DNA of 32,000 nt from Candidatus Hadarchaeota archaeon (GCA_964514965.1 CAZETV010000001.1:180001-212000), one strand, 5' to 3'. Numbered from the stretch's first letter, positions 2,856 to 17,642 are shown. Notes: generated by a model not told the origin, from the letters alone. Numbers and translations: made by a program.

Positions 2856-4393
2856 ACCTCAATACTACACTAGTCCGATTCAAACTTGTGTGCATCAGCT
2901 ATCATCTCAGCCAAGTACGAATTTCAATACTACACTAGTCCGATTCAAACGATATTCTCCCCTGTTGACAATCTATATATCACAGATTTCAATACTACAC
3001 TAGTCCGATTCAAACAAACGGAGCTTGGTCGGGCGCACCTATGAAAAAAAGATTTCAATACTACACTAGTCCGATTCAAACGAGGAATTCCTGTGACCGC
3101 ACTCAGGGAAGACAGTAATTTCAATACTACACTAGTCCGATTCAAACCACTTCCGTTCTGACCGCGTACTTGGCTGCAGCTCTATTTCAATACTACACTA
3201 GTCCGATTCAAACTCGGGCTTGGTCGCCTTGGGCTTCGCCTCGACCTTATTTCAATACTACACTAGTCCGATTCAAACCCCTCTCAGGGATTCAGACATC
3301 GTAATCCATAATTTCAATACTACACTAGTCCGATTCAAACGAGAACGACACTGCTTTCAGGGTGTCATTTACAACATTTCAATACTACACTAGTCCGATT
3401 CAAACTTACGGTTTAAAGAAGTCAACTACCACCCAATAAATATTTCAATACTACACTAGTCCGATTCAAACGCTCTTCCTCGCGACACCCGCGCTCGCAG
3501 TATGCCATTTCAATACTACACTAGTCCGATTCAAACGCTCTTCCTCGCGACACCCGCGCTCGTATTATGCCATTTCAATACTACACTAGTCCGATTCAAA
3601 CGACCTGTATGCAAAAGGTCTTCTCACGTATGACCAGATTTCAATACTACACTAGTCCGATTCAAACGCTATTGCGTACAGACCGTACAGTCGAGTTGAT
3701 GTGATTTCAATACTACACTAGTCCGATTCAAACGGGGCCACGTCGTTTTACGTAACGGCGTCGTCCTTCATTTCAATACTACACTAGTCCGATTCAAACG
3801 CTCTCTCTCTCATGTCATATCTATATATGACGTGTATTTCAATACTACACTAGTCCGATTCAAACCCGAGAACGGCCGGGCCGGGGCCGGCGCACGCCTT
3901 TATTTCAATACTACACTAGTCCGATTCAAACGCCGCCGTAGCCCTGCTGTTTCATGCGCAACCTGAATTTCAATACTACACTAGTCCGATTCAAACGTGA
4001 ACGCGTGGGACACTCGGGACAGGATAGTGACGATTTCAATACTACACTAGTCCGATTCAAACAACTTTACTTGCCCTCGACGTACACGGCCTTCATCAAT
4101 TTCAATACTACACTAGTCCGATTCAAACCCGAGGCTCAGGTGGTTCACGATGTCGCGCTTCTCCATTTCAATACTACACTAGTCCGATTCAAACCTTTTT
4201 ATCCCTCATGCGCCTCGCTTCGCTTTTTATTATTTCAATACTACACTAGTCCGATTCAAACCGTTTAATATTATTGTTCTTGAGCCTCCAAGTCCTCATT
4301 TCAATACTACACTAGTCCGATTCAAACGCATCTTGGACTCGTTGTCGGGGTCTGGAAACACCAATTTCAATACTACACTAGTCCGATTCAAAC
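2856..4393 (-). CRISPR. CRISPR array with 24 repeats of 30 nt and 23 spacers (32-37 nt)
   Basis: The + strand repeat is atttcaatactacactagtccgattcaaac. Repeat starts are 2856, 2921, 2986, 3052, 3118, 3184, 3249, 3311, 3376, 3442, 3507, 3572, 3638, 3704, 3770, 3836, 3902, 3967, 4033, 4099, 4165, 4232, 4298 and 4364. Only the repeat at 2856 is degenerate (acctcaat...), which marks the trailer end, so the leader is at 4394-4488 next to cas2. In the transcribed (minus) sense the repeat is GTTTGAATCGGACTAGTGTAGTATTGAAAT, ending in the ATTGAAAT-type 8-nt handle common in type I-B/I-A repeats. Track ORFs 2945..3145 and 3954..4268 are artefacts of repeat periodicity. Confidence 0.98.
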
Positions 4394-4488
4394 CTCCCGC
4401 TCATTTTTGGTTCTGAGCCTCGTTTGTAAAAGCTTTTCGCCACCAGAAAAGTCAACCCTCGATCGTGCAGTCCATTTATAAACGCTGA
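4394..4488 (-). promoter_or_regulatory. Putative CRISPR leader with a TATA-box-like element (tttataaa, 4475-4482)
   Basis: This is a 95-nt non-coding gap between the cas2 stop and the newest repeat. The palindromic TTTATAAA lies about 80 nt upstream of the first repeat in the minus sense. Confidence 0.4.
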
Positions 4489-4764
4489 CTAAATTATGCT
4501 CGAAACTTCGGCCTTCTCGATGCCCAAGACTTCTTTCTTCATCCATTTTTGGCTAGAGACAATGAAGAAGATTATCGAGTCCTCATCCTCTTTTATTCGC
4601 TTCCGCAGCCCAACCTTGACTTGTTCTAGCCCACCCTCGCTCAGTTCGCCTTCAAATGCCGAATTCTGGATCCAGTTGAGGTGTTGCCGGAGGAAATGCC
4701 TCACTCCGTCTATCCGCTCTACAGCGACATCATAAACAACTACAACGTAAATCTTCACCACCAA
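4489..4764 (-). CDS. cas2: CRISPR-associated endoribonuclease Cas2
   Basis: About 90 aa: ..KIYVVVVYDV......LRQHLNWIQNSAFEGEL..., the typical Cas2 ferredoxin-fold pattern. The start is ambiguous (TTG 4764, GTG 4761 or GTG 4758) and overlaps the cas1 stop. Confidence 0.85.
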   Translation of the reverse strand: MVVKIYVVVVYDVAVERIDGVRHFLRQHLNWIQNSAFEGELSEGGLEQVKVGLRKRIKEDEDSIIFFIVSSQKWMKKEVLGIEKAEVSSII

Positions 4765-5765
4765 GCCTTAAATCCCTCGTATTTTTGGCCGCCAATCAGA
4801 TGCTTTATGAGTTTGTAACATTCAAGCCTTACCAATCTCTGGTATGAAACTTTTCTCTTGAGCGCTGGATGGTTGATAGTCTTCCTGAGTTTATCGTCGT
4901 ACTCCGAGATGAAGGTTCGCCTGCCCTTTTCGTTCAGGTAACAAAAATTGAGTTCATCCTGAAAATGCTTCTCGCCGACCATACGGTTGTTCACCAACTT
5001 GAAAATCGTGCGATCAACGAGAATCGGCTTGAAGATCTCGCTCAGATCTAGGCTCAGGGAAAACCTCCGCTCGCCCGGCTCGTGCAGATAGCTTATCGTG
5101 GGGTTGAGCTGGGTGTGGTAGATCTCGGACAGGGTGCTCGTGTAGAGGAGGGAATTGCCGAAAGAAATCAGGCAGTTTATCATGTTGTCGGGCGGCCTCC
5201 GCACGCGCCGCTCGAACTCGAACCCCTCCCGCAAGATTGTGTTGAAGCTCTGGTAATAGTGGTCCCTGATCCTCCCTTCCACGCCCATGAGCTCTTGCAC
5301 ATCTTTTGTACCGTCGATCTGAGTTCTCTCCTGTTCTATCGCTTCCATCATTCCGCCCACGTCCTTGCCGTGCTTCTTGTAATGGGCGAGGTTCTTGAGG
5401 ATGTTGTGGCTCGCGGACCTGATTATTTCCTTGGCGATTTCGAGCCTCCTTTCTTTGCCCAAATAATTTTCGACCTGTTTAACCACCAAAAGACCAGACA
5501 CCAGATACTCGCGCGGATAGTAGCTCCCCGAATAGAACCCGTAGTAATTGAAAAAGTGCATCGGGATGCGGTTCTGGGCGAGGAAGACCATGAGCTTCGA
5601 GTTCACGTCCAGTTCCCCGAGTGCATATATCGCCTCGACGTTCGCCACGGGCATCGGTATTTTCTCCTGCCCTGCCTCCAAGTACAGGGTGTTTTCCTTC
5701 CGCCTCAGCCTCCCGCTTTTCAGGATGTAGTAGTTGCGCTTCACCTCAACACCAACACAACTCAT
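4755..5765 (-). CDS. cas1: CRISPR-associated integrase Cas1
   Basis: 336 aa. Motifs are NTLYLE..., MGVEGRIRDHYY, SYLHEPGERRFSLSLDLSEIFKPILVDR (the conserved E/H/D acidic-site context). It overlaps the cas4 3' end by 20 nt. Confidence 0.92.
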   Translation of the reverse strand: MSCVGVEVKRNYYILKSGRLRRKENTLYLEAGQEKIPMPVANVEAIYALGELDVNSKLMVFLAQNRIPMHFFNYYGFYSGSYYPREYLVSGLLVVKQVENYLGKERRLEIAKEIIRSASHNILKNLAHYKKHGKDVGGMMEAIEQERTQIDGTKDVQELMGVEGRIRDHYYQSFNTILREGFEFERRVRRPPDNMINCLISFGNSLLYTSTLSEIYHTQLNPTISYLHEPGERRFSLSLDLSEIFKPILVDRTIFKLVNNRMVGEKHFQDELNFCYLNEKGRRTFISEYDDKLRKTINHPALKRKVSYQRLVRLECYKLIKHLIGGQKYEGFKAWW

Positions 5766-6261
5766 AATAGCTGCACTTTTTGCAATAAGACTTCTTCCCC
5801 ACTGCTGGCGGTTCCGGGCTGGAGAGCACTTGCTTTACCTCCTCCAGAGTTTCTTCGACCTCCCTTTCTCCCTCCTCAGTCAGCTCGACCTCCTTTTTTC
5901 GCCTGAGGCGTGGATAATCGATTACCCCCTTTGCGGCGACTCCCCTCCGCTTCAGCCAGTAGAGGTAGTAGAGCATTTGGCCGATGTGGGCCGCCTCTAT
6001 CTTTCGGGAGCGCTTGATGTCGTGGACCTCGTTTCCGTGCTGGAGGAAGTCTATCTTGATTGGCCCGAGGTCTATCTCCTTTGTCTTACGGGGGTATGCC
6101 GTCTCATGCAACAAACTGCCCAGCATCACCCGGTCCGAGGAGTGCTCCATCCCTAGGGAGTGCGAGAAGAGCCAGAGCTTGCGCTTGCAGACGAAGTAGT
6201 AGTTGACCTGGGTGCCAGTGTAGGTGAGTTCTGGGGAAGGGATTTTCTTCATGGATTTCAC
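5746..6261 (-). CDS. cas4: Cas4 (RecB-like PD-(D/E)xK exonuclease with a 4-Cys cluster)
   Basis: It has an N-terminal Cys (YYFVCKRKLW) and C-terminal CKKCSYYELCWC, with DIKRSRK and QMLYY motifs. The GTG at 6261 overlaps the upstream ATPase stop (GTGA). An alternative ATG start is at 6252. Confidence 0.85.
   Translation of the reverse strand: MKSMKKIPSPELTYTGTQVNYYFVCKRKLWLFSHSLGMEHSSDRVMLGSLLHETAYPRKTKEIDLGPIKIDFLQHGNEVHDIKRSRKIEAAHIGQMLYYLYWLKRRGVAAKGVIDYPRLRRKKEVELTEEGEREVEETLEEVKQVLSSPEPPAVGKKSYCKKCSYYELCWC
6167..6216. repeat. 50-nt segment of the intact cas4 5' region, duplicated at 7782-7831 (47/50 identical)
   Basis: aagagccagagcttgCgcttgcagacgaagtagtagttgacCtgGgtgcc compared with aagagccagagcttgTgcttgcagacgaagtagtagttgacTtgAgtgcc, aligned by eye. 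Confidence 0.9.
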
Positions 6262-7703
6262 GCTTTAGGCGAAGTTGAGCTGAGGATTTTCTCCAAATCC
6301 CTCAAATCGAACAGGAAGTAGCCTTCATCCCTCATTTTCTCCTTCCCATCGATTTTTCTCGCCATCAGCCCGTAGAACTCCTTCTTTCTTTTGATGAACC
6401 ATTGAACGTACCCCGCTTTCCGCTTGAGTTCATCTAAAATATTTTTTGATTCTTTCAAACTCAAATCTCGCCATTTCGTCTCAACGAACAAAATTTTCTT
6501 TTCCTCCTCGTTTAAAGCCACCACGTCGATGTCGTACACATTTTTTCCCTTTTCCGCTGCCGGTATCTTGCCCCATTGCTTCCCGAATTTTGTAAATCGG
6601 AACGGCAGCTCGGCCACCATCTTTTGAAGGAGGAATTCTCTGCACAGCTTTTCAAAACGCGCGCCGATGAATGAATTTAACTGATCCTTGACGGTTCCCT
6701 CGAAGCTCGGATCCCTTCGTTCGTAGAGGGAATAATTTTTGTAAAAGAATCTGAACCAAAAATGCAAAAGCGGATGGTTTATGAAGATGAGTCCTTTTTT
6801 CTTTCCTCTTATCAGGGGCCTGTCGAGCCTCAGGATTTCAAAATAGTTTAAAAGTTCGTCCATTTGCCTGGTTATCGAGGTCTTCTCGGCCCTCAGGTAA
6901 CTGGCTATATCGGAAAAGGAATTGTTGCCGCTCGCGACCGCTTCCAAGATTGAGTAGTACAGCCCGGACCTCCTGCCGAACTCTTGGGAGAGGATCACCT
7001 GGACCTCATCCTCCAAGACGGCATCCTTTTGGAAGAAGAAAACACGCAGGATTTCTTCCATGCCTTTCCCCTGCAACCCGTTATCCTCCATGGCGACGTA
7101 GTACCTCGGGAAACCACCGAATATGGAATAAAGAGTCACTATCTCATCCATGTTTTTGAATTTCAGTTCTCTGCACATCTCAGCGACGCTTGGGAACTCC
7201 ATTGGCTTCAGGTCTATTTTGCGCTTGACCCTGCCGTAGAGAGGTTCCTTTCGGCCCTGGAAAATCTTTTTCATCAAGCCGACGGTGGAGCCAGTCAGGA
7301 TCATCATTAACGGCTTATCCTCGTTCAGGTCGAAGTTCTTCTGGAGGGTGCCAAAAACGGATTTGTCCACGAAGGCGAAATTTTGGAACTCGTCAAACAC
7401 GACGATTCCCCGGTACCTTTTCACCAAGGTTTCAAAGAACGACTCCCAGGAATTCACAACCTCGAGCTCACTTATGATTTTCCTCTGCCTCAGGAGCCTC
7501 GAAAACTCTAGGAGAAGAGCTTCGCTCGACTTGTTCCTGTTCACGAAGAAGTACAGCCCCCTGTCTTTCATGAATTCCAGCGCCAACCTTGTCTTTCCAA
7601 CCCTTCTGGCGCCGTATATAGCCGTGGGCCAAAATTTCTGCTTTGAGAGCCCCTCGATTTCCGAGAGGGTCTTGAGTTCGGCCGCCCTATTAATAAATCT
7701 CAT
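6258..7703 (-). CDS. P-loop ATPase with wHTH and a C-terminal PD-(D/E)xK-like domain (archaeal ATPase / DUF234-type architecture, COG1672-like)
   Basis: Walker A is IYGARRVGKTRLA and Walker B is GIVVFDEFQNF. There is a central wHTH-like segment (YYSILEAVASGNNSFSDIASYLRAEKTSITRQMDEL). The C-terminal motif is VYDIDVVAL...ILFVETKWRD (D...ExK). The likely start is the ATG at 7703 (MRFINRAAELKTL); the track start GTG 7727 lies inside the operator-like palindromes. Confidence 0.75.
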   Translation of the reverse strand: MRFINRAAELKTLSEIEGLSKQKFWPTAIYGARRVGKTRLALEFMKDRGLYFFVNRNKSSEALLLEFSRLLRQRKIISELEVVNSWESFFETLVKRYRGIVVFDEFQNFAFVDKSVFGTLQKNFDLNEDKPLMMILTGSTVGLMKKIFQGRKEPLYGRVKRKIDLKPMEFPSVAEMCRELKFKNMDEIVTLYSIFGGFPRYYVAMEDNGLQGKGMEEILRVFFFQKDAVLEDEVQVILSQEFGRRSGLYYSILEAVASGNNSFSDIASYLRAEKTSITRQMDELLNYFEILRLDRPLIRGKKKGLIFINHPLLHFWFRFFYKNYSLYERRDPSFEGTVKDQLNSFIGARFEKLCREFLLQKMVAELPFRFTKFGKQWGKIPAAEKGKNVYDIDVVALNEEEKKILFVETKWRDLSLKESKNILDELKRKAGYVQWFIKRKKEFYGLMARKIDGKEKMRDEGYFLFDLRDLEKILSSTSPKA

Positions 7704-7705
7704 GT

Positions 7706-7736
7706 ATTCACCTACTGAATAATTCACTTACTGAAT
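7706..7736. promoter_or_regulatory. Two tandem 15-bp palindromes (ATTCA-N5-TGAAT) between a TATA-like element and the ATPase start codon
   Basis: The palindromes are attcacctactgaat (7706-7720) and attcacttactgaat (7722-7736), offset by 16 bp. atatatttaaat follows directly (7736-7747; TTTAAATATAT in the minus sense). Confidence 0.5.
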
Positions 7737-7781
7737 ATATTTAAATGCTTGCGTCGGCTGGTCGAGCTCGCACCAAAGATT

Positions 7782-7870
7782 AAGAGCCAGAGCTTGTGCT
7801 TGCAGACGAAGTAGTAGTTGACTTGAGTGCCCGCAAAAGTTAATCTTTCAGATAACGCCGTAAGATTCAA
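7782..7870 (-). pseudogene. cas4 5' remnant (first ~29 codons) fused to unrelated sequence, immediately after cas3
   Basis: Minus-strand translation from the TTG at 7870 (TTGA overlap with the cas3 stop) gives NLTALSERLTFAGTQVNYYFVCKHKLWLL, then unrelated IFGASSTSRRKHLNIFSK*. Intact Cas4 reads KKIPSPELTYTGTQVNYYFVCKRKLWLF. The first codons are diverged and AT-richer, and the next 50 nt are 94% identical to 6167-6216. Confidence 0.8.
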
Positions 7871-10593
7871 ATTACATTTGATTGGATTTCGTCGCCTTCT
7901 ATGTTTATCTCTTTTATTTTATTAATTCCGTACTTTTCGATGTTCTTCAAATCAATTCCATCAATTTTTAAAACAACAAACCCCTTGAAGTCTTTACGTT
8001 CTGTTAACATCCTATGTTTTTCATAAGAGAATGTTGGTAAATTGAACGAATGCAAATAAAGGATTTTCAATAATTCCCACTTATTCACTTTATTTTCTAA
8101 ATTATTATCGCCAACTTTTTCTTTCACTTTATTAATAAGAGAATCGCCATCCTTACTTTCCCAAGGTAGTTTCCAGTTATTTTTATCGTTTATAACTTCA
8201 CCAAAAGCCCTTTCTATCTCATTTTCTGATTTAGACATAATATCTGGGATAACTACCTGAAGTCCGGCGATAGTTCTAAAAATTTTTTGAGCCTCACTTC
8301 TTTTTTCAGCAGCGAAATATTTTAACCATTCTAAATTTTTCTCTATTTCTTCCACATAAATTTCTTTAAGAGATTTTCCATTTATTTTCTCTTCAAATGT
8401 CTTTTCTATCATCTCTCGCTCTTTTTCATAATGCAATTCTACACTTTCGTTGCGTTTTAATATTTCGAGGCTTTTTTCAATAACTCTCGTGTCGTATACG
8501 GCCTTTGTTCCTTTATCAGTTCCCGTAAATATAATGACGTTCGGCGCGGCGTCTTTATAATCTCCCTCTTTGTCTCTGTTTCTATAAATCCTCCCCCATC
8601 TCTGGATTTGACTATCAATCGGAGATGCCTCTGTGATTAGAATGTCAAAATCCACATCAACGGATGCTTCTACAATCTGAGTTGAAACTAGAACCAGTCT
8701 ATCGCTTTCGGTTATGAGCTTTCCATTCTCTCTTTTATTTTTTAAAGTGCATAATTTTTCTTTTACGTCTTTTATTGTCTTGTTTTTTCTTTTTTCAATT
8801 AATCTTGAATGAAGTAGGTGGAGATTACCTTTATTAACACTCAAATTTTGTGAGTCACTTTCTATACGCTTGAACAGTTCAATGGCCTTTCCCACGTTGT
8901 TGACAATTATTAGAACATTCTTGTCTCTTCCCTCATTCAAAATTTTATGTATCTCTTTGAAAGAATCTTCGTTTATTTTCAACTCAAAATTTCCATTCTC
9001 TTTTGATTGCTCATAAGAAAATAAAGTGCCATCGTTCAATCTAATTTTATGTCTCTTGAAATTGTAATTCTTTATCCTATTTCTTAAGTTTATCCATTTT
9101 TCATTTTGTAAATCTATAACACTATCTTCCCCGAAATTGCGTTTTTCAAAAAAGGGTTTAAAGTAAGGGGGGAATGTTGCGGTTATGACAAGGATGTTTC
9201 CATTGAGTGATTTTATTATTTCTAAAGTTTTGATAATGATGGCCGCCATTTCAGGATTGTAGGCTTGTATTTCGTCTATGACTATAGATGAAACTGGATA
9301 AATAGAAATCACTTTATCGGAACCGTAATATTTGAGAGAGGTAAGGAAAATTTGATCAGGTGTTGATAAAAGTATAGGGTAAGAAAAGAGTTTTGAAGAA
9401 TTTAACTTGCTTTCTACACTTAGCTCTTCGCCTTCTTTCTCTTCTTTTAAAAATTCCATAAAAGCTGTTGAATGTAAAATCCCAACGTCTTCACCTCTAC
9501 CGCCAAAATAAGGCAATTTCTCATCTGTCGCAAATCTTACAAACAGGTCATTTAGTGCAACTCTCAACGGCAAAGTGTATAACAGTTTCTTTCCATTGTC
9601 TTTTGCCCACATTAACGCAAATTCTGTTTTACCGGAGCCTGTCGGAGCCACTAAAACAATATTTTGTCTATTGAGATTTTTCAGTACATCTTTTTGCCAG
9701 AGGTTAAATTTTGCGGATTGGAATTTGATTTTGTTGATTATATTTTCTTCTAGCTTATCGAATATTTCAGAAACGGTTTTATTGGTTTCTATGCGAACTT
9801 TGCCACTGGCAGAATAATCGCATCTTCTCAGAGTACCGAGAAAAACAAGAAATTCGTGATCTGGTTTATCATTGTCTATTTCGTGGAATTTTATCAACTG
9901 TGAAACATTGTAACCTTTGCTAATTTGCTGACTGAGACTATCTAATCTGTTCATGTCAACATTATTTTCTAGTTTATTTAGGATGTCTAAAACAAAATTG
10001 CTTTTCTTTATTTCATTATCGCTTTTTAAACAAAGAATCAGATTACTAAGCAGAGATTTAATTGCATCTTTTTTACTCAGCAAAAATTCAGTATATTTTT
10101 CTATGTCCGGGTATACATCAAGAATATTTCTGAAATTTGGAATCTCGTTGACATAAAAGCTGTTGTGGTGATGTAATAAAATCGCTGTTCTGACTTTAGC
10201 ATCCCAATCGCTATTTCTCAACATTAGCTGGGAGTAAACTATTGAAAGTGCTTCATGATCATTGACATTTACTTTCCATTTTTGTCCATCTGTATCAAAA
10301 AATTTTTTTATTTGTTCCCATTCATTTTTGTATGTATTCTTTTTTTCATCGTCGCAGAAGACTTTTTTCTGAAAACTATAATCTATCTTGCCCATATCGT
10401 GTAGACTCATAGCAATAGCCAAATTTTTAAAAAACTCATCGTCAAATTTAAAGGAAATTTTCTCTCGGTTCTTATTTACAAACTCCTGAAACTGAATAGC
10501 TCTCAATAAAACTTCCTTTAAATGATCTTTTAGTAAGAAATTGTTGCCTTCTTTTGATTTAGCCCTCAGGCAATCAAGTATTTTCTCTGTCAT
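7867..10593 (-). CDS. cas3: Cas3, HD nuclease fused to an SF2 helicase
   Basis: 908 aa. HD motifs are LKDHL, SLHDMGKID, AILLHHHN and RRCDYSAS. Helicase motifs are VLVAPTGSGKTEFAL (I), IVIDEIQAY (II), VITATFP (III) and VSTQIVEASVDVDFD...QRWGRIYR (V/VI). The gene is strongly AT-rich. Confidence 0.92.
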   Translation of the reverse strand: MTEKILDCLRAKSKEGNNFLLKDHLKEVLLRAIQFQEFVNKNREKISFKFDDEFFKNLAIAMSLHDMGKIDYSFQKKVFCDDEKKNTYKNEWEQIKKFFDTDGQKWKVNVNDHEALSIVYSQLMLRNSDWDAKVRTAILLHHHNSFYVNEIPNFRNILDVYPDIEKYTEFLLSKKDAIKSLLSNLILCLKSDNEIKKSNFVLDILNKLENNVDMNRLDSLSQQISKGYNVSQLIKFHEIDNDKPDHEFLVFLGTLRRCDYSASGKVRIETNKTVSEIFDKLEENIINKIKFQSAKFNLWQKDVLKNLNRQNIVLVAPTGSGKTEFALMWAKDNGKKLLYTLPLRVALNDLFVRFATDEKLPYFGGRGEDVGILHSTAFMEFLKEEKEGEELSVESKLNSSKLFSYPILLSTPDQIFLTSLKYYGSDKVISIYPVSSIVIDEIQAYNPEMAAIIIKTLEIIKSLNGNILVITATFPPYFKPFFEKRNFGEDSVIDLQNEKWINLRNRIKNYNFKRHKIRLNDGTLFSYEQSKENGNFELKINEDSFKEIHKILNEGRDKNVLIIVNNVGKAIELFKRIESDSQNLSVNKGNLHLLHSRLIEKRKNKTIKDVKEKLCTLKNKRENGKLITESDRLVLVSTQIVEASVDVDFDILITEASPIDSQIQRWGRIYRNRDKEGDYKDAAPNVIIFTGTDKGTKAVYDTRVIEKSLEILKRNESVELHYEKEREMIEKTFEEKINGKSLKEIYVEEIEKNLEWLKYFAAEKRSEAQKIFRTIAGLQVVIPDIMSKSENEIERAFGEVINDKNNWKLPWESKDGDSLINKVKEKVGDNNLENKVNKWELLKILYLHSFNLPTFSYEKHRMLTERKDFKGFVVLKIDGIDLKNIEKYGINKIKEINIEGDEIQSNVI

Positions 10594-11406
10594 CTAAAGC
10601 CATCCATTATCAAGTATTTTAAACTCTGCACCATTGACGTTATAAACTTCCATTCTTGTTTCACTATTCAAAATAATACTATAATCATTTCCTGTATAAA
10701 TTACAGTTCCAAATTTTGGTTTTCTTTCTGTTTTTTTAGTTATTTCAGATTTTGATTTAACCGGAGCGTCGCCATTCATAAATCTTACCTCTACTGGTAT
10801 GGAATAAACCGGGTATTTCTGTTTTTTAAGTCGAAACTCTTTTTCCTTAATGTAAGTGGGATATTTTATCTTAACGTCTGTAATATTTTCAACGGTATCT
10901 GCCGCATTTACTTCTTGCACATGTTCTATGAAAACAACATCTTCACTTCTTCCTAACGACAATACTTTCTTCGGATGTTCTAAAGATTCTTTTATTTTGC
11001 CAATTAACTTTTCCTCCCCTCTAATAAAAAGAAATATACGACCGTTGAAAAGTTCCTGTTGATGCACAGGTGATCTTTGAGAGGTTATACCTTGCCCATA
11101 TAATGGCAAATTTTGATTTACGAGAACAAGTTTCCCATCCTTTTGTTGTAACTCTGTTTTCCCCTTTATTAAATTTTGATAGTTCCAAAAAGCATTTTCA
11201 AATCCGCCATGCATGCTAACTTTTAATTTCCACCAATTATCAATACCAAATCCGTTGCCATACCAATCGTCACATGCATTTTGGAGCATTCCAATTACAG
11301 TAGATTTTGGTGGTAATGGATAAGTTTGTGCGTAATAGAAAGTAAAGGGGTTTCGATATTGAGCAAATGGCTGAAATAATTCAATAAAAAGTATTTTTTC
11401 TACCAT
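10594..11406 (-). CDS. cas5: Cas5 (Cas5t/Cas5h-like)
   Basis: The N-terminus FIELFQPFAQYRNPFTFYYAQTYPLPPKSTVIGMLQNA matches the Cas5 signature (FR.P....TYPLPPPST.IG). The gene abuts the cas3 start. Confidence 0.8.
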   Translation of the reverse strand: MVEKILFIELFQPFAQYRNPFTFYYAQTYPLPPKSTVIGMLQNACDDWYGNGFGIDNWWKLKVSMHGGFENAFWNYQNLIKGKTELQQKDGKLVLVNQNLPLYGQGITSQRSPVHQQELFNGRIFLFIRGEEKLIGKIKESLEHPKKVLSLGRSEDVVFIEHVQEVNAADTVENITDVKIKYPTYIKEKEFRLKKQKYPVYSIPVEVRFMNGDAPVKSKSEITKKTERKPKFGTVIYTGNDYSIILNSETRMEVYNVNGAEFKILDNGWL

Positions 11407-11438
11407 TCTGCCACCATAAAGATGATACTGATGATTAT

Positions 11439-12437
11439 TTAACCCAAAAATTTCTCAACTTTCTCAATAACATTTTTTTCATTTAATTCTTTTGTATCTA
11501 TTTTTGAATAAACGCTACACAACTCTTTTCTATTAAATACACTAACATTTTCACCATTCTCTCCTAACGCTATGTTAAAGGAAGGTATTATGTTATCTTC
11601 GACTTCATTCTCTATAATTTCTAAATCGCCGTCTTTTTTGTACTTTCTTTTTATCTTGTATTGTGTCTTTCTTTCTAATCTTATTTTATTCAAATAGGAT
11701 TCGTATTTTCCATTATTATATAGACCTAAAACAATTAACCATGGCGATAAATCTTCTCTTCGACCTTTAATGTCTCTCTTAAGATTTAGAATTGTCTCGA
11801 TAAATTTTATAATCCTTTCCTTAATAACTTCGTCGCCTACCTTGATATCCCCAATTTCTTCTTTACCATGCTCATCTTTTAAAAAATTACCAACTCTATT
11901 AACATCGATTGTAATATTATAAATATAGAAATCTGGTTTCTCCTCTATTGTGACAGGATTACTGCCTTCTCCACCAGCCCTCTTCATCATGTCCAAATTG
12001 GCCATTGTATGGGTATCCAAATTGTAAGGTGTTAGTGAGATAGCATGACTTATCTTTACGGGGGAAACTCTTGTTAGTGCTGCCTGTCCTTCTTTTGTTA
12101 TCATAAAACCAAATAAATCAAATTCAGGAAAACCAGCAAAAACGTTTTGGTTAATTTCGTTTAGTCCAGCTACGCCACCTTCTCTAACTACAAGTTCCTC
12201 AGGTCCTGCTAGTTTCCATGTCTCTGGGAAAAGGTGATTTGCCCAGTGCAAAATACTATATCTGAGCGCATATCTGCTCACTAATGCGTATTGTCTGCCA
12301 TCCCACTTCGTTATCTTCTTGAGCGGTTGATAGTTAGTTCCGCCACCCCAATCGTAATTCAGAGAACTTCCATAGAAAACGATGTCTAGAACTATAAACT
12401 TTTTATCACTTTTTTTATTTTCATTTGTTTTATTCAT
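11439..12437 (-). CDS. cas7: Cas7 (Csa2/Cst2/DevR-type backbone subunit)
   Basis: GSSLNYDWGGGTNYQPLKKI....YALVSRYALRYSILH is the typical Cas7 I-A/I-B N-terminal pattern. The gene overlaps the upstream small ORF by 8 nt. Confidence 0.8.
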   Translation of the reverse strand: MNKTNENKKSDKKFIVLDIVFYGSSLNYDWGGGTNYQPLKKITKWDGRQYALVSRYALRYSILHWANHLFPETWKLAGPEELVVREGGVAGLNEINQNVFAGFPEFDLFGFMITKEGQAALTRVSPVKISHAISLTPYNLDTHTMANLDMMKRAGGEGSNPVTIEEKPDFYIYNITIDVNRVGNFLKDEHGKEEIGDIKVGDEVIKERIIKFIETILNLKRDIKGRREDLSPWLIVLGLYNNGKYESYLNKIRLERKTQYKIKRKYKKDGDLEIIENEVEDNIIPSFNIALGENGENVSVFNRKELCSVYSKIDTKELNEKNVIEKVEKFLG

Positions 12438-12795
12438 TTTCCTTACCTTTGACCTTGTTTTGATATGTACTCATGATACCAATAATTATTGAATAAGCAA
12501 GATTTATAAACGCTTCATCTGGCAAAATATCATAGTTTTTTTCTAGCTCATCCCACAATTTTTTGAAATTTTCCTTTGGTTTATTAATAGACCTCAAAAG
12601 CAGGTAGAAGAATCTATTTTGATTTTTATTTTTTACGGACTCCAGTAAATCAAAAACTAGTCTTTGTTTGTAATTATCAGATTCGCTTATAAAAGAATCT
12701 TTAGCAGCATTTTTAAATTCCCACAACTTTAATTCTTTAGACTTTTCTCCAATTTTTAGTTCCCACACCGCTTGTTTTATCTCATCATCCATCAT
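12430..12795 (-). CDS. 121-aa predicted all-helical protein between cas8 and cas7; candidate standalone small subunit (Cas11/Csa5-like). Function unproven.
   Basis: It is tightly coupled on both sides (ATGA overlap with the cas8 stop, 8-nt overlap with the cas7 start) and has the same AT-rich composition as the interference module. Its size and position match csa5 in csa5-cas7-cas5-cas3 arrangements. I recognise no sequence motif. Confidence 0.45.
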   Translation of the reverse strand: MMDDEIKQAVWELKIGEKSKELKLWEFKNAAKDSFISESDNYKQRLVFDLLESVKNKNQNRFFYLLLRSINKPKENFKKLWDELEKNYDILPDEAFINLAYSIIIGIMSTYQNKVKGKENE

Positions 12796-14546
12796 CTATA
12801 CACCAGACCTGCTGTTAAGCATAATGCATACCTTGGCCAGCTTAATTCATTATCTACTATTTTATTAAACACCCAATTTAAAAAGCCTTTGTTGATAATT
12901 TCTTTGCGGTTGTTTAGAGATTTAAGTAAAACAATAAGAAAACCAGCTTTATCATTTGCGTATAAAGAATCAAGAAGAAGATAAGCAATTTTCTCTCTCA
13001 TTTTCAAATCTGGGATTAGTCTTTTTGTCTCTTGGGTTGAGTAATAAAAAGTACTTGGGAATGTCCTTTTGACTTGAGTTACCATTTCTCTATAATTCTC
13101 AGAGAAAAAGATTTGAGAAAATAACAGACTACTATTTTTTTCCTTAAACTCCAAAATTACGGCCTCAATCAAAAGAGCATAAAATACGGAGTAATTTGGG
13201 TACCTACTCTCGTCGATAGAAACTTTTACGTGTTGCAAAACCAATGGGTAAAGAGGTTTTCCTTTTATGAATTCTTTTAGAAGCCATACATATTTATCCC
13301 CCTTAAGATATTTAGGTCCAACTTGAATTCTTTTGTTCATCGCATCTCTAATCCTGTCGTCTAAAACAATAGAAGCTCGAAGTTTCGGAATGCCTATAAA
13401 TTCTACATCTTTTAACTTTAGATTTTCTATTCCACCGAATTCTATTATATACATGTTCTCTAAAGAAAAATCTACCTTTTTCTCAATAATAGTGTCGATT
13501 ATAGCAGTCCAAGTTATTTTGAACATATCTGTCCTTCTCCCTTTCCTTTCTTTATATAGAGCGAATTTTTTGTTAATTTCGTATGAACTTTCTAATAAGT
13601 TGGTATAGAACATCAAGTTTCTCCCTTCGATAAACTGGAAAGAGTTTCCAAATGATAAAAGCAATAAGTATAATGGTTGTTTAACATTTAACCACTCCTC
13701 AACCATAATTACTTTCGGGAGATCGGTATAACCGATGTTTGGAAATTCACCAGGCGAATACAAAAAAGGGTTTATCGTGGAATCTGCTCGAATTTCATAA
13801 GTCAAACCATCTTTCTTTTTCTTTTCGCTTATTTTAGAAGCAAATTTACGTAAATTTGAATAATCTTCTTTTAGCAAATACCAAAGGTAAACGAATGAAG
13901 TATACAGATCTTTTTTAGGATTATAGATGAAAAAATTCCTATGGTCTTTAGGTAATTTCAGATCACAGCTATGAATAAGCGACTTTATATCTTCTTTTTT
14001 TTCTTCAACGTTTACTAGAATGCCAAAAATTTTGTTTTCTATATTTTGTTTAAACTCATCTAATTCTTTTATTAGATTTTTCTCTTTGTTAGAAATCTCA
14101 TTATTGCATTGTATGATTTCATTTTTGAATTGAGTGATTTTTTTATTTTCCTTTTCAATTTTCTTATCTTGAGATTTGAGTTTAGATGGCTTTTCATTAG
14201 ATTTAATTTTCTTACTCTCGTTAATTAAATCTCTCAATTTTTTCTCAGATTCTCTTAATTTGACTCGTAAGCCTTTTTTTGGGTCTGTAATTTTTTTTCT
14301 TATGCCGCTAATTTCACTTCTAACTGTTCTAATTCTAGAATGGTAGAATAAGTACGCAAACGGAAAATATCCATAATAAATCAATTCCTTATTTTCCCTA
14401 ATCCTCTTTCGCAGCTCTTCCAAATCCCATCCATAGACTTCTTCCATCAAATTTACAAATCCGAGAATTCCTGCATCTATAAACCAATTACCTGTGAATT
14501 GTAGTGTATTATGACTTGATTCAACAATTTTTGTTCCCATATTCAT
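12792..14546 (-). CDS. cas8: Cas8 large subunit (Cas8b/Cst1-like) with a Lys/Glu/Asn-rich coiled-coil-like insert
   Basis: It occupies the first position of the cas8-cas7-cas5-cas3 operon. The N-terminal FTGNWFIDAGILGFVNL resembles the conserved N-terminal motif of Cas8b-like proteins. The likely start is the ATG at 14546 (GGTGA 4 nt upstream); the track TTG start at 14570 lies inside the cas6 remnant. Confidence 0.7.
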   Translation of the reverse strand: MNMGTKIVESSHNTLQFTGNWFIDAGILGFVNLMEEVYGWDLEELRKRIRENKELIYYGYFPFAYLFYHSRIRTVRSEISGIRKKITDPKKGLRVKLRESEKKLRDLINESKKIKSNEKPSKLKSQDKKIEKENKKITQFKNEIIQCNNEISNKEKNLIKELDEFKQNIENKIFGILVNVEEKKEDIKSLIHSCDLKLPKDHRNFFIYNPKKDLYTSFVYLWYLLKEDYSNLRKFASKISEKKKKDGLTYEIRADSTINPFLYSPGEFPNIGYTDLPKVIMVEEWLNVKQPLYLLLLSFGNSFQFIEGRNLMFYTNLLESSYEINKKFALYKERKGRRTDMFKITWTAIIDTIIEKKVDFSLENMYIIEFGGIENLKLKDVEFIGIPKLRASIVLDDRIRDAMNKRIQVGPKYLKGDKYVWLLKEFIKGKPLYPLVLQHVKVSIDESRYPNYSVFYALLIEAVILEFKEKNSSLLFSQIFFSENYREMVTQVKRTFPSTFYYSTQETKRLIPDLKMREKIAYLLLDSLYANDKAGFLIVLLKSLNNRKEIINKGFLNWVFNKIVDNELSWPRYALCLTAGLVYR

Positions 14547-14550
14547 GTTC

Positions 14551-14704
14551 TCACCCCACCATGAAACCAAACCCCAGCGAGTTCTCCTCCCTGAACCCCG
14601 CGTCCAACCCGAACTGAATCACATCTTGCTTTTTCCCCGTCCAGATAATAGGAGAACCCCCAGATGGAACCAAAAATCTCGCCATTCATTCCGAACCCAA
14701 CTCT
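14551..14704 (-). pseudogene. cas6 3'-terminal remnant (about 51 codons, frameshifted) abutting the cas8 start
   Basis: Minus-strand translation gives RVGFGMNGEIFGSIWGFSYYLDGEKARCD, then a +1 frameshift, then IQFGLDAGFREENSLGFGFMVG*. Intact Cas6 reads HVVFGGKEVKVLGSLWRFMFSYLDEMRREILQFGLDAGFGELNSLGFGFMNVVR*. Between ctggac and cagttc there are 22 nt here and 21 nt in the intact gene. About 80% nt identity over the last 20 codons (by eye). An in-frame stop lies just upstream at 14705-14707. Confidence 0.85.
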
Positions 14705-15246
14705 TCAACTCTCCTTTTCAGCCCGGCCAGCTCATCCTCCACTCCCATCTCCCTGCAGATCTCTTCCAGATACTCTAGATTCAGCTTCCCGAGCTGCCTT
14801 ACGAATATCCCCTCCGCATCTTTTAAATCTTGCTCGCTCCCGAACACCAGCTTGTTGGCGATGATGTCCTCGGGAGAAGCGATGTAAATATCGGTCCCCT
14901 TGTATTTGAACGATGTCCTCCTCTCGAAAGTGCGCTTGTCCATTTCGTTGCAAATTCCTTTAATATCCAACCTGAACATCGACCTCTTGTCCTGAACGAT
15001 GCAGTGGAACCGTTCTTTCAACGCCCTCCTCAGGCCCTCAGCGCTTGCAAAAAAATCATTCCGACTCAAGAACTCGGCCAGCTTCGGCGTGTCCTCCTCT
15101 TTGATCTGCAGAATCAGGTCTATGTCCATCGTGGTCCTCGAAAGACCGTGGAAGTTCACCACCAAGCCACCTACCATGACGTAACCTATGCGTGCCCTGC
15201 CAAGGAACCCGCACACGAGCGACAATATCTCATCTATTTCCCGCAC
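14686..15246 (-). CDS. Minimal nucleotidyltransferase-fold protein (Pol-beta superfamily, toxin-like)
   Basis: 186 aa. IGYVMVGGLVVNFHGLSRTTMDIDLIL fits the GG..(x)..HG..R.T.DIDL NTase active-site pattern. It has a GTG start that overlaps the upstream 65-aa ORF by 17 nt. Its last 7 codons overlap the cas6 remnant in another frame. Confidence 0.65.
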   Translation of the reverse strand: MREIDEILSLVCGFLGRARIGYVMVGGLVVNFHGLSRTTMDIDLILQIKEEDTPKLAEFLSRNDFFASAEGLRRALKERFHCIVQDKRSMFRLDIKGICNEMDKRTFERRTSFKYKGTDIYIASPEDIIANKLVFGSEQDLKDAEGIFVRQLGKLNLEYLEEICREMGVEDELAGLKRRVEELGSE

Positions 15247-15427
15247 TTTTACTCGCCTCGTGGATTTCTACCGCAAACTTGATCAGGTCCAATCCCTGCT
15301 CGAAGGTTTCCTCCCCTGAGAAACGCCGGGCGCGAACGGCATCCCGCCTCAGCTCCCTGGCCCGGACCTCCTTCACCCTCCTCCTGAACTCCTCGAGGTC
15401 CCTACGTTTGAACGCGCTGGCCTTCAT
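15230..15427 (-). CDS. 65-aa Arg/Glu-rich helical protein, putative partner (antitoxin-like) of the NTase
   Basis: It has an ATG start and overlaps the NTase start. The C-terminal half SGEETFEQGLDLIKFAVEIHE resembles the small partners often found upstream of minimal NTases (from memory). No search was run. Confidence 0.5.
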   Translation of the reverse strand: MKASAFKRRDLEEFRRRVKEVRARELRRDAVRARRFSGEETFEQGLDLIKFAVEIHEASKSAGNR

Positions 15428-15478
15428 GTTCCGCCTCCGGAGGCGCCATTAGGGACATTTCCACCACGTGAATATTGT

Positions 15479-15495
15479 CTCACCACGTTCATAAA
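15479..15495. repeat. 17-bp perfect direct repeat (ctcaccacgttcataaa), copy 1; identical to the last codons of intact cas6
   Basis: Exact match to 16870-16886. In the minus sense it encodes FMNVVR. Confidence 0.85.
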
Positions 15496-15527
15496 AAAAA
15501 ACCACGGTCAACTTTTGGAAAGGAAAC

Positions 15528-16736
15528 TCAGATCACGGCCAAAAATAGGGGTAGGGTGTCCTCATCCAGTACCTCCACGCTTTTGGGGTACTTCCTGTGC
15601 GGTTTCCCCGCCTTCACCTCTATTTTCAAATCGGCCGCCATGCAATCTATCTCATAGGAATTTCTGAAGTAGAAAACTTCCCCAAATTTTCTGGACAAAT
15701 GTGACTGGACCACCCACTCATACAGAGCGCCCTTCAGAAACTCCTGCCCGCTCCAGAGGGACAAACTCCTAGCCATGAAGGGGTCGATGAAAAATACTTT
15801 CTTCTCCTTTCGGTGCAGGATCTTTTCCCCCTCCTTACATCTCGCCAAATCCAGGATGAGCAGACTTTTCAGCAGCTCCAGATATTCGGCCACGGTTTTG
15901 TAGGAATACCCGGAGGTATCCTTGGATATCGTGGTATAGCCGAGCGGGGAAGGGGCCTTTTTGAATATCGAGGAAAGCACCTCCCTCGATAGGGAAACGC
16001 TCCTGCCCAACCTCAGGACCTCCCCCTCGAACGCCCTTATGAAATCCTCATCCGCCCTTGGGTCCCCGTTTATCGAGAGCGGAAATCCACCTTTCTTCAG
16101 ATAATCCCCAAACGCTCGCTTTATCTCCTCTTCCTGGACGGCGGCTTTTTTCGCGTCCTTGTTCGCGTCCCCGGTGGTCTTTATCTTTACACCGTGGACC
16201 TCCAAGAATTCCCTGAAACTCAAGGGGTAAACAGTTATCTCCCTCCCCATTCCCCTCCGCCCGGGAAAAAACTCCACATCCCCCCTCAGTTTTAGGGAGG
16301 AGGAACCTGTTATGGTCAAGACATCGTCCTTGAACGCGCCCAGGTCCACGTATCCTTTTACGACCCTCCACCAGCCTTTTACCCCTGTGACCTCGTCCAA
16401 AAAAATAAAGCTAGAACCATGGCCGAGAGACCTTCTGAATTCCAGATAAGCATCCATAACTTTTCTCAGCGAGTATGCGTCCGGGGAGAGGTCACAGTTG
16501 AAGTAAAATATCCTCTCCGCCTCTACCTTTTTCAGCAGATCGTCGACCATGAGCTTTAATCCAGTTGTTTTGCCTATCTGCCTCGGCCCGATGACGAAGT
16601 TCAATGAAAAGGACTTCAGCGAGATGTCTTTTATCCAGTTCGGCACCCATTTAATCCTCATCCCTTCCCATTTCGCAAAGTGATAATCTTTTTCCCCCTT
16701 CCACCAAGGGTTATGCCTTATCACGAGGTTTCTCAT
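15528..16736 (-). CDS. P-loop ATPase with a C-terminal PD-(D/E)xK-like domain (AAA_14 + DUF4143-type architecture, COG1373-like)
   Basis: The N-terminal ...RHNPWWKGE is typical of this family. Walker A is VIGPRQIGKTTGL and Walker B is SFIFLDEVTG. The C-terminal motif is YEIDCMAADLKIEVKAGK (D...ExK). The gene has its own AT-rich upstream region with TATA-like ttataag/ctataaa elements (16737-16790). Confidence 0.75.
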   Translation of the reverse strand: MRNLVIRHNPWWKGEKDYHFAKWEGMRIKWVPNWIKDISLKSFSLNFVIGPRQIGKTTGLKLMVDDLLKKVEAERIFYFNCDLSPDAYSLRKVMDAYLEFRRSLGHGSSFIFLDEVTGVKGWWRVVKGYVDLGAFKDDVLTITGSSSLKLRGDVEFFPGRRGMGREITVYPLSFREFLEVHGVKIKTTGDANKDAKKAAVQEEEIKRAFGDYLKKGGFPLSINGDPRADEDFIRAFEGEVLRLGRSVSLSREVLSSIFKKAPSPLGYTTISKDTSGYSYKTVAEYLELLKSLLILDLARCKEGEKILHRKEKKVFFIDPFMARSLSLWSGQEFLKGALYEWVVQSHLSRKFGEVFYFRNSYEIDCMAADLKIEVKAGKPHRKYPKSVEVLDEDTLPLFLAVI

Positions 16737-16865
16737 GATAGAATTTATAGTTCTAACTACTTATAAACATTTAGAAACCTAACTTCCATTATTGAACGGC
16801 TCCGTCCTGAATCCCAATTCTCCCTCTTAACTTCATCTCTCTGCCACGTTGATATTTTTGAACCG

Positions 16866-17642
16866 TCACCTCACCACGTTCATAAATCCAAACCCGAGCG
16901 AGTTCAGCTCTCCGAACCCGGCGTCCAGTCCGAACTGCAATATTTCCCTCCGCATTTCGTCCAGATAACTGAACATGAAACGCCAAAGGGAGCCCAGAAC
17001 CTTCACCTCCTTTCCCCCGAACACAACGTGGGCGCAGGCCGTGTTCATAAACTCGAACTGCTCGAATATCGGGGACTCCTCAATCGCCTTGCCGTAAAAC
17101 TCGCGATATTTCTTGAACAGATTTTCCTCCAGCTGCCTGACGAACGGCTCGAACGGCCATTGCTCCCTCCAGTAGATGTAATCGTAATCCTTGGGCGGGA
17201 CGATGCCGTACTTCTCAAATTTCTCCTTGGGTATGCGGAGCACGATGGGCGTGCCGGTGATCAGCCTGCAAGACCTGCCGATTCTGGGCTCGAGCGGCTT
17301 CACCGACTCAACGCCGAACGACATGTCCCCGATGTTAACGGGCACCCGCTCTTCCATTATGCGCTCCAATTTGTCGTTCAGGAGTTTTATGATCCCGACC
17401 TCCGGGGAGGATATCAGAAATTGCCTGAGCTCACCCTTCTCCATGCTCTCGGACGGATTCTCTTTCGTGCCCTTTGGTGGAAAGATGTTCGAGAAGCAGA
17501 AGAACTTGTACCCCCGCCTGTCGTGAAGTTTGACATACGGCGTTTCATTGAGCAGGCCATAGATGAAACCCTGGAGCTTGCGGTGATATTTCAATTCATA
17601 CGCTTGGTTCTTCAACGACTTCAATTTGATAAGGAGCCTCAT
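16866..17642 (-). CDS. cas6: Cas6 crRNA-processing endoribonuclease
   Basis: 258 aa. The N-terminus is MRLLIKLKS...YELKYHRKLQGFIYGLL. The C-terminal glycine-rich loop is GLDAGFGELNSLGFGFMNV, the Cas6 hallmark. G+C is like cas1/cas4, not like the AT-rich interference genes. Confidence 0.88.
   Translation of the reverse strand: MRLLIKLKSLKNQAYELKYHRKLQGFIYGLLNETPYVKLHDRRGYKFFCFSNIFPPKGTKENPSESMEKGELRQFLISSPEVGIIKLLNDKLERIMEERVPVNIGDMSFGVESVKPLEPRIGRSCRLITGTPIVLRIPKEKFEKYGIVPPKDYDYIYWREQWPFEPFVRQLEENLFKKYREFYGKAIEESPIFEQFEFMNTACAHVVFGGKEVKVLGSLWRFMFSYLDEMRREILQFGLDAGFGELNSLGFGFMNVVR
16870..16886. repeat. 17-bp perfect direct repeat, copy 2 (inside the cas6 3' end)
   Basis: ctcaccacgttcataaa, identical to 15479-15495. 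Confidence 0.85.

Follow-up and report, generated by a model that had tools for sequence, protein, structure and literature searches.

Two ATPase-nuclease genes at duplicated cas-gene ends of a mosaic type I-B CRISPR-Cas locus in a Hadarchaeota archaeon: probable autonomous modules rather than Cas subunits

When ATPase genes lie among the cas genes of a CRISPR-Cas locus, are they part of the CRISPR-Cas system or guests in it? The question is raised by a 32,000-nucleotide stretch of DNA from a Candidatus Hadarchaeota archaeon (GCA_964514965.1 CAZETV010000001.1:180001-212000; the window), whose minus strand carries a complete type I-B locus amid housekeeping genes. The order of transcription is cas6, a 402-aa ATPase, a 65-aa open reading frame (ORF), a nucleotidyltransferase, cas8b, cas11b, cas7, cas5, cas3, a 481-aa ATPase, cas4, cas1, cas2 and the array. 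An earlier note on this DNA had placed extra genes between cas6 and cas8 and between cas3 and cas4, and all of them are found on the minus strand at the positions it gave. The cas-gene remnants that it reported beside each ATPase are real as well, the 3' end of cas6 lying by cas8b and the 5' end of cas4 by cas3. The note offered three roles for the ATPases: cargo that exploits cas-gene ends, addiction or guard modules, or ancillary nucleases of Cascade and Cas3. Cargo is the best fit, given duplication scars, cassette turnover and mosaic identity, and we conclude that both ATPases are probably autonomous modules inserted at cas-gene ends, not subunits of the type I-B system.

Pfam searches confirm the COG1672-like and COG1373-like families that the note had named. 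The 481-aa protein is an ATPase_2/DUF234 protein (DUF234 2e-23, ATPase_2 2.8e-18, and REase-ARP 6.8e-5, a weak match to a restriction-endonuclease family), and the 402-aa protein is an AAA_14/DUF4143 protein (AAA_14 9e-25, DUF4143 2e-10). PADLOC models of defence candidates match both: PDLC04985 (PDC-S27) matches the former at 2.7e-33 over residues 2-442, and PDLC04787 (PDC-S01) matches the latter at 2.5e-37. With its N-terminal P-loop with Walker A and B motifs and its C-terminal DUF234 domain of the PD-(D/E)xK type, the 481-aa protein has the full PDC-S27 architecture; the 402-aa protein, with an AAA_14 P-loop and a DUF4143 PD-(D/E)xK domain, has that of PDC-S01. No NCBIfam model matched either ATPase, the nucleotidyltransferase or the 65-aa ORF. 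Both Pfam families were placed earlier in the PD-(D/E)xK superfamily (PMC3424549).

The C-terminal D/ExK motifs quoted in the note are present, and their residues are conserved without exception. The invariant positions are G31/K37/T38, D104/E105, E351, D393, E408 and K410 among 38 homologs of the 481-aa ATPase, and G55/K56/T57, D114/E115, E362, D364, E373 and K375 among 36 homologs of the 402-aa ATPase. The AlphaFold2 (AF2) model of the 481-aa protein (predicted local distance difference test score, pLDDT, 89) matches 2qen and the ORC and STAND folds, and that of the 402-aa protein (pLDDT 92) has an Orc1/Cdc6-like fold. Residues 332-451 of the first model form a helix-strand-strand-strand-helix-strand unit to which the conserved acidic and lysine residues map, and the second model also ends in such a unit bearing its own conserved acidic and lysine residues. 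Structure prediction, a check that the note had proposed, puts the conserved C-terminal residues of both proteins on a nuclease-like unit, and each ATPase is predicted to be an Orc1/Cdc6-like AAA+ ATPase followed by a winged helix and a C-terminal PD-(D/E)xK nuclease domain. A sequence search of the PDB returned a single match, 2qen, for the 481-aa protein and no match for the 402-aa protein.

The link to defence without an assigned mechanism, which the note had stated, is borne out by the literature. A 2026 survey ranks PDC-S01 and PDC-S27, in which an ATPase is fused to a PD-(D/E)xK domain, with the most common defence candidates of archaea, calls them unvalidated and reports that most such candidates still await experimental validation (PMC12988326). 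The definition of the two families rests on members nested within operons of BREX, DISARM and type I restriction-modification systems (bioRxiv 10.1101/2024.01.29.577857). No functional study came up when the literature was searched for the Pfam names as whole words.

If the PDC-S27 gene is guest rather than subunit, where is it found without cas genes? We compared the window with metagenome contigs (L001 and so on). L004 is syntenic with the window's flanks, with an F420 ligase, a pterin-binding protein and FrhB on one side and the Mer-type gene on the other; between these flanks it retains no more than a remnant of cas4, the PDC-S27 gene, a 106-bp piece of cas4 and one CRISPR repeat. At another chromosomal site, L001 carries cas6, a small ORF, a nucleotidyltransferase, a cas4'-ATPase-cas4' unit and one repeat, and it is without interference and adaptation genes. 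L004 and L001 have kept an intact PDC-S27 gene after the loss of both sets of genes, and the gene is also intact in L172, where an MNT/HepT pair stands upstream of the cas4'-ATPase-cas4' unit. The ratio of nonsynonymous to synonymous substitution (dN/dS) is 0.08-0.11 for the PDC-S27 gene, like that of housekeeping genes, and 0.10-0.12 for the PDC-S01 gene. Solitary CRISPR repeats stand by the ATPase in L004 and in L001 (12057-12092); L004, whose repeats lie at 5030-5064, 7739-7829 and 8251-8281, also has oppositely oriented ones at a distance of a few kb.

We considered whether the L004 ATPase had been inherited vertically at a conserved site and do not favour this: its dS of 0.78 is lower than that of all four syntenic neighbours (0.94-2.3), which hints, weakly given that three of the neighbours are near saturation (dS ~2), that the ATPase may have been exchanged later.

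Near more distant relatives no cas genes were detected. Among 80 PDC-S27 relatives on contigs from one genome per species (~1 Mb in total), which are 41-53% identical to the window's ATPase, tblastn with one Cas protein set and a simple repeat detector found cas homologs or arrays near none (0/80). The closer relatives examined have no cas neighbours either: the PDC-S27 proteins at 74% and 62% identity (L168 and L170) adjoin DNA-repair or cell-surface genes, and the PDC-S01 protein at 74% (L166) lies between ribosomal protein genes and a PIN/MazE pair. The window's ATPases are nested at cas6/cas8b and at cas3/cas4, yet most of their relatives are solitary, and only in a single clade of loci are they linked to cas genes. 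When viral contigs were scanned with the alignments of both families, no relative of either came up, which leaves a virus-borne origin unsupported.

Each ATPase gene also appears to bring its own control region. At least one exact ATTCA-N5-TGAAT palindrome lies no more than 70 nt from the start codon in 72 of 74 PDC-S27 loci, and two such palindromes in 54 of them; the remaining 961 kb of those contigs hold 8 matches. The loci belong to DPANN lineages, Bathyarchaeia, Methanoperedens, Thermococci, Hadarchaeota and one Planctomycetia metagenome-assembled genome (MAG), and their proteins share 41-53% identity with that of the window. The layout seen in the window, TTTAAATA followed by the tandem palindromes, GGTGA and ATG (Table 1), recurs ahead of nearly all relatives examined. 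In L050 each of the four half-sites is altered, giving ATACA/TGTAT, a joint change that would be expected if a protein binds there. PDC-S01 members have a TATA box followed by palindromes or repeats, which differ between subfamilies; the L166 homolog, for example, has TTAGAAC-N5-GTTCTAA at the position equivalent to the palindrome in the window. We regard the PDC-S27 palindromes as a putative operator bound by the ATPase itself, since they lie past the TATA box but ahead of the start codon and since the winged helices of Orc1/Cdc6 on origin repeats offer a parallel.

These promoter-like regions argue that the ATPase genes are self-contained transcription units. We propose that PDC-S27 and PDC-S01 would be single-gene modules, each under its own TATA-box promoter with palindromic operator-like sites, whose products would repress their own promoters through the winged helix and would act alone on foreign DNA as ATP-dependent DNA-binding nucleases. 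The role as ancillary nucleases of Cascade or Cas3 is not supported: PDC-S27 is under purifying selection in the absence of cas genes (L004, L001), the relatives examined have none detected nearby, and it has its own promoter-operator. In L165 a relic of the PDC-S27 operator stands ~100 nt upstream of a PDC-S01 gene, which suggests that one ATPase family may have replaced the other in place.

How did the cassettes enter? The cas-gene ends beside them are duplicated. The cas6 remnant (~130 bp) is 82% identical to the true cas6 3' end over ~80 bp in a self-comparison, and its counterpart in L165 was annotated as a Cas_Cas6_C fragment of 50 aa. This ~130 bp of cas6 3' end flanks the larger unit, made up of ATPase, small ORF and nucleotidyltransferase. 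Within that unit the PDC-S01 ATPase is itself flanked by a 25-bp repeat of the cas6 terminus, whose right-hand copy, the third duplicate, retains, by alignment, the original junction of cas6 end and small ORF that is seen in L001. The cas4 remnant (~85 bp) is 94% identical over ~50 bp to the true cas4 5' end, and it is also present in L001-L004, L088, L165 and L172. L165 has three scarred cassettes, with duplicates of 94 bp of the cas6 5' end around a third ATPase, 129 bp of the cas6 3' end and 58 bp of the cas4 5' end. The interval that a 53-bp cas4 5' duplicate and cas4 enclose in L088 holds a PDC-S27 gene in the opposite orientation.

Toxin-antitoxin cassettes bear the same scars: L117 has HicAB between cas4 5' duplicates (118 bp), and two PIN/UPF0175 pairs between cas4 and cas1, beside a 54-bp cas1 5' duplicate. 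The scars would thus mark the route by which DNA entered, not an activity specific to the ATPases. We rejected transposon target-site duplications as their source, since the lengths vary (25-130 bp), the copies have diverged and there is no transposase; the variable length and the 68-94% identity of the repeats argue against a site-specific integrase as well. Some integrative elements carry a copy of their target gene's end, and homology-facilitated illegitimate recombination is also known. We propose that the ATPases and the nucleotidyltransferase pair entered by recombination at conserved cas-gene ends, which form the joints between cas6, the interference module and the adaptation module, leaving direct duplicates, 25 and ~130 bp long from the cas6 3' end and ~85 bp long from the cas4 5' end. 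Homology-anchored recombination would account for the insertion, whether as a Campbell-type single crossover or as homology-facilitated illegitimate recombination; the observed scar structure would arise if a circle with short cas-gene homology crossed over once, or if one end of the insert joined through homology and the other illegitimately.

The toxin-antitoxin genes bear on a second possibility, that the nucleotidyltransferase pair, and perhaps the ATPases as autoregulated nucleases, are toxic when lost and stabilise the CRISPR-Cas locus. Such genes recur at the same joints: besides HicAB and PIN/UPF0175 in L117 there are MNT/HepT in L172 and a small ORF with a nucleotidyltransferase in L001 and L165. 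Toxic genes are typically under tight control, as the operator-like sites would provide for a nuclease gene, and precisely the embedded genes remain in the decayed loci. The cas genes of L004 and L001 were lost anyway, however, so that the embedded genes protected only themselves, and no antitoxin partner is evident for the ATPases. We consider such an addiction or guard role unlikely, though less so for the nucleotidyltransferase pair. As for the pair itself, its two genes overlap by 17 nt and it is conserved in L001, L003 and L165; the nucleotidyltransferase matches AbiEii at 4.7e-5 only and has no PADLOC match, and the 65-aa ORF belongs to no family.

The interference module between the two ATPases has its own history. 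The guanine-plus-cytosine (GC) content falls from ~50% to 31% exactly over cas8b-cas3 (7867-14546) and rises again at both ends, and the closest Cas8b in a large protein collection, from an Omnitrophica bacterial MAG, is 58% identical; the module has no close relative. At the left end, L165 is 89% identical to the window in nucleotide sequence from cas6 to the cas6 remnant, and the similarity reaches exactly as far as the remnant does; from there on L165 carries another interference module, with a TM1802-type cas8, a different cas7 and an 804-aa cas3, at 40-43% GC, which is below that of its flanks. At the right end, the first ~35 nt of the cas4 remnant resemble the cas4 starts of L112 and L114, canonical I-B loci of 26-28% GC whose interference proteins are related to the window's. 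Because the remnant is first L112/L114-like and then of host type, we place the right crossover within it, at the conserved GGCACYCARGT motif. Together, the homology break at the cas6 remnant and the chimeric cas4 remnant indicate that the module was swapped by recombination at the same cas-gene ends that border the ATPases; on this evidence we take the interference module to be a foreign replacement, and the joints would have served, after the insertions, for the exchange of the whole module for a low-GC one.

A sharp GC step at both junctions, each at repeated sequence, is also what a chimeric metagenome assembly might produce. We regard such an artefact as extremely unlikely, because proteins from both sides of the block and from inside it are found at 100% identity in two sources, each on a contig of up to 1,030,738 bp. 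In addition, the two parts of the chimeric cas4 remnant join cleanly and in frame at a conserved motif, and the independent loci L165 and L088 share the remnant architecture with other modules.

The rest of the locus is mosaic too. Identity between the window and L165 changes in steps: it is 75-80% in cas6, rises to 95-97% at the cas6 stop, keeps that level over the ATPase and the small ORF until three quarters of the way along the nucleotidyltransferase, and is then 57% in the remnant. Correspondingly, dS between the two is 0.10 for the PDC-S01 ATPase and 1.10 for cas6. The adaptation genes are 91.5% identical in nucleotide sequence to those of L085, with homology ending exactly at the start of cas4; upstream of cas4, L085 has a different PDC-S01 ATPase in the opposite orientation. 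Because adjoining segments differ in nearest relative and identity, the window's locus reads as an assemblage of five or more pieces that differ in history. The cas8 gene of L165 (Cas_TM1802; L165 10736-12664) is split into ORFs of 202 and 438 aa; it may be a pseudogene, damage of a kind that could favour module replacement.

If the ATPases are guests, do they settle at random? The earlier note had made its proposal depend on the families lying by cas genes more often than chance. As whole families they do not (0/80), but within one clade they fill the slot upstream of cas4 at a rate far above chance. In each of the six loci with Cas1 identity of at least 76% and enough upstream sequence, the gene next to cas4 on its upstream side is a member of PDC-S27 or PDC-S01, and five distinct ATPases fill the slot across these six: three PDC-S27 proteins, mutually 29-41% identical and two of them on the opposite strand, and two types of PDC-S01, mutually 44-47% identical and one of them on the opposite strand. 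With an average of fewer than two such genes per archaeal genome (PMC12988326), random cargo would not fill the slot in this way. There are two readings: selection for a place beside the adaptation module, or a tendency of these ATPases to land beside or replace one another. The latter has some support, because 11 of the 80 otherwise unrelated PDC-S27 loci (for example L006, L009, L017, L026, L041, L062 and L081) carry another ATPase, of one family or the other, right beside the first, in most cases on the same strand and after a short gap.

Selection would be expected if the ATPase-nuclease were a partner of adaptation that supplies DNA fragments or a regulatory signal, or drives transcription of the adaptation genes, and the filled slot is what speaks for it. 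So does the spacing in the window. The note had the ATPase stop codon overlapping a GTG start of cas4; the TGA (6260-6258) does overlap a GTG, but the homology to other cas4 genes begins at ATG 6252, the likely start, 5 nt past the ATPase stop. Since no promoter-like sequence intervenes between the 481-aa ATPase and cas4, the window's cas4-cas1-cas2 may be read from the PDC-S27 promoter. Nevertheless, the ATPase lies on the opposite strand in three of the six loci, HicAB occupies the same slot in L117, the ATPase is intact where cas4-cas1-cas2 has been deleted (L004, L001), and the tblastn and repeat searches placed none of the 80 relatives near cas genes. I-B loci further removed (Cas1 51-70%) have mostly contiguous cas genes and lack an ATPase at the cas3/cas4 junction; one of them carries PDC-S27 upstream of cas6, and in three the interference module sits in inverted orientation, flanked by cas6 and cas4. 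We give an adaptation partner little chance. The symmetric placement of the two ATPases, which the note had read as a clue to their role, is likewise better explained by recombination joints, the middle module itself having been swapped; what stands of it is the above-chance filling of the cas4 slot in one clade.

In L099, L102 and L103 (Cas1 66%), cas7, cas5 and cas3 are inverted relative to cas6 and cas4-cas1-cas2; no flanking repeats were detected, and where scars were looked for beside the inverted genes, in L099 and L102, there were none. L090, a close relative of the adaptation module, has a 167-aa WYL-domain protein between cas4 and cas1 (L090 1412-1915).

The turnover of cassettes might also be driven by the ATPases themselves. 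As homing-like cassettes, they would cut their own 5' palindromes or a conserved cas motif, and repair would copy or exchange the cassette. This would account for a promoter-operator that travels with its gene across phyla, a cassette more conserved than its flanks, the operator relic upstream of the replaced gene in L165, the adjacent second ATPases and the duplication scars at conserved motifs. Yet cassettes of toxin-antitoxin genes, which have no nuclease, bear the same scars, so that the ATPase is not needed; five divergent paralogs would have to share one target site; the viral contig scans found no relatives; and cleavage is purely hypothetical. We think this very unlikely. A related idea is that the slot upstream of cas4-cas1-cas2 is a selected dock for interchangeable, self-regulated PDC-S27 and PDC-S01 nucleases, which would drive transcription of the adaptation genes and feed them foreign fragments, or, in a variant, would cut their own operators and make their locus a recombination hotspot at which CRISPR-Cas modules are reshuffled. 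Such a dock is improbable, but if it exists, an innate sensor-nuclease would be coupled to spacer acquisition.

We return to the conclusion that the ATPases are autonomous modules inserted at cas-gene ends. Six points weigh against it. Five ATPases of two families in one slot exceed the specificity expected of a neutral hotspot and could reflect selection for a link to cas4-cas1-cas2. The window's ATPases are co-oriented with the cas genes, and the close spacing before cas4 may mean co-transcription and functional coupling. We found no recombinase, integrase or transposase encoded nearby. The comparison loci, as metagenome contigs, may be incomplete, and tblastn with one Cas set could miss very divergent cas genes near the relatives. 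Finally, a defence role of the two families would rest on guilt by association, and whether the ATPases defend their host or serve themselves is likewise read from their context.

The features of the locus are collected in Table 1. With cas8b, cas7, cas5 and cas3 beside cas6, cas4-cas1-cas2 and an array, the host system is of type I-B. It is bordered by an FrhB-like gene (17661-18824) and a luciferase-like (Mer-type) gene (1829-2836), and the other flanking genes encode F420-related enzymes, a class I LysRS and a protein of the GPR1/FUN34/YaaH (acetate-channel) family, a set suggestive of a methanogen, possibly one like Methanothrix.

Table 1. Positions in the window of the cas genes, the embedded genes, their putative control regions and the duplicated cas-gene ends.
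Feature	Position	Strand	Evidence and remarks
cas6	16866..17642	-	TIGR01877 7.9e-29, Cas_Cas6_C; host-type GC; 3' end duplicated twice downstream; 78% identical in nucleotides to L165 cas6
Promoter-like region of PDC-S01 ATPase	16737..16795	-	TATA-like TTTATAAG, then palindrome TAGTTAGAACTA, then ATG; putative function
402-aa AAA_14 + DUF4143 ATPase-nuclease (PDC-S01)	15528..16736	-	between cas6 and cas8b, followed by the small-ORF/nucleotidyltransferase pair
Third cas6-end duplicate, 25 bp	15479..15503	-	TTTATGAACGTGGTGAG...; right edge of PDC-S01 cassette; self-BLAST 88% over 25 bp
65-aa ORF, putative antitoxin-like partner	15230..15427	-	overlaps nucleotidyltransferase start; no Pfam or PADLOC match
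186-aa DUF6036/AbiEii-like nucleotidyltransferase	14686..15246	-	Pfam DUF6036 3e-7, AbiEii 4.7e-5
cas6 3' remnant	14552..14680	-	ends ...GFGFMVG and stop; abuts cas8b start; left boundary of low-GC block
cas8b	12792-14546	-	PADLOC Cas8b 4e-101
cas11b	12430-12795	-	PADLOC Cas11b 7.5e-22
cas7	11439-12437	-	interference module; NCBIfam matches of the module TIGR02585, TIGR01895, TIGR01587
cas5	10594-11406	-	interference module gene
cas3	7867-10593	-	interference module gene
cas4 5' remnant	7775..7850	-	just downstream of cas3; chimeric, first ~35 nt donor (low-GC), remainder host type
Putative promoter-operator of PDC-S27 ATPase, ~45 bp	7704..7751	-	TTTAAATA; two tandem ATTCA-N5-TGAAT palindromes (period 16), GGTGA, ATG
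481-aa ATPase_2 + winged helix-turn-helix + DUF234 ATPase-nuclease (PDC-S27)	6258..7703	-	between cas3 and cas4
cas4	5746-6252	-	Pfam Cas_Cas4 3e-58
Adaptation module cas4-cas1-cas2	4489..6252	-	Cas_Cas4 3e-58, Cas_Cas1 5e-93, CRISPR_Cas2 7e-18
CRISPR array	2858..4395	not assigned	24 repeats, ~30 nt each

Elsewhere in the window, a MazE-like N-terminus is fused to two PhoU domains (20916-21977) next to pst phosphate transporter genes, a stand-alone NTP_transf_2 nucleotidyltransferase lies at 29601-30302, and GC is somewhat lower, 39-43%, at 21-24 kb. A PRiA4_ORF3-like gene recurs in decayed or mosaic cas loci (L001 7625-8200 and L165 17147-17668, one per strand), and in L001 a 293-aa ORF (8818-9699) lies near it.

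What follows for the annotation of such loci? A false lead is removed: the ATPases are not a component of a new type I subtype and should not be annotated as cas genes. The locus also provides base-level examples of how CRISPR-Cas systems are rebuilt, with the ends of cas6, cas4 and cas1 as joints for insertion and module swap. The palindromic promoter is a first concrete handle on the biology of two very abundant, uncharacterised archaeal defence candidates, and its conservation in PDC-S27 predicts autoregulation through the winged helix. As far as we found, systematic partial-gene scars, mapped crossovers, turnover in the cas4 slot and a promoter-operator shared across phyla have not been described in the literature.

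Several known systems resemble what we see. Module exchange, with toxin-antitoxin and insertion sequence (IS) genes among the modules, has been documented in archaeal cas cassettes (Vestergaard, Garrett and Shah 2014, PMC3973734). Those cassettes share with the window separate histories of adaptation and interference and small selfish or defence genes between modules; there, the interspersed genes were not analysed and evidence for type I-specific accessory genes was minimal, whereas here crossovers are mapped to base level. The scars recall integrative elements and homology-facilitated illegitimate recombination, which also leave a direct repeat of part of the target gene, with the functional copy kept and a truncated remnant on the far side. 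In contrast to integrative elements, the window has no integrase, and its repeats are 25-130 bp long and 68-94% identical, not exact; inexact repeats of variable length point to general recombination and age rather than to a site-specific enzyme.

The ATPases themselves share with PDC-S27 and PDC-S01 the hidden Markov model match, the ATPase and PD-(D/E)xK architecture, abundance in archaea and nesting in multi-gene defence systems. The families as defined have BREX, DISARM and type I restriction-modification as hosts, and here the host is CRISPR-Cas; our finding is a new instance of a known embedding habit, extended to a new host system. Over their first ~330-360 residues the proteins are predicted to share the AAA+ core, lid and winged helix of Orc1/Cdc6 initiators and STAND NTPases (PDB 2qby, 1fnn, 2qen and 2fna; Apaf-1 and NLR resistosomes). 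Avs and NLR proteins have a large sensor domain, which the window's ATPases do not. Like Orc1/Cdc6 at origin repeats, the ATPases appear to be paired with short palindromic DNA sites; unlike Orc1/Cdc6 and STAND proteins, they add a C-terminal PD-(D/E)xK domain, and their palindromes sit in their own promoter.

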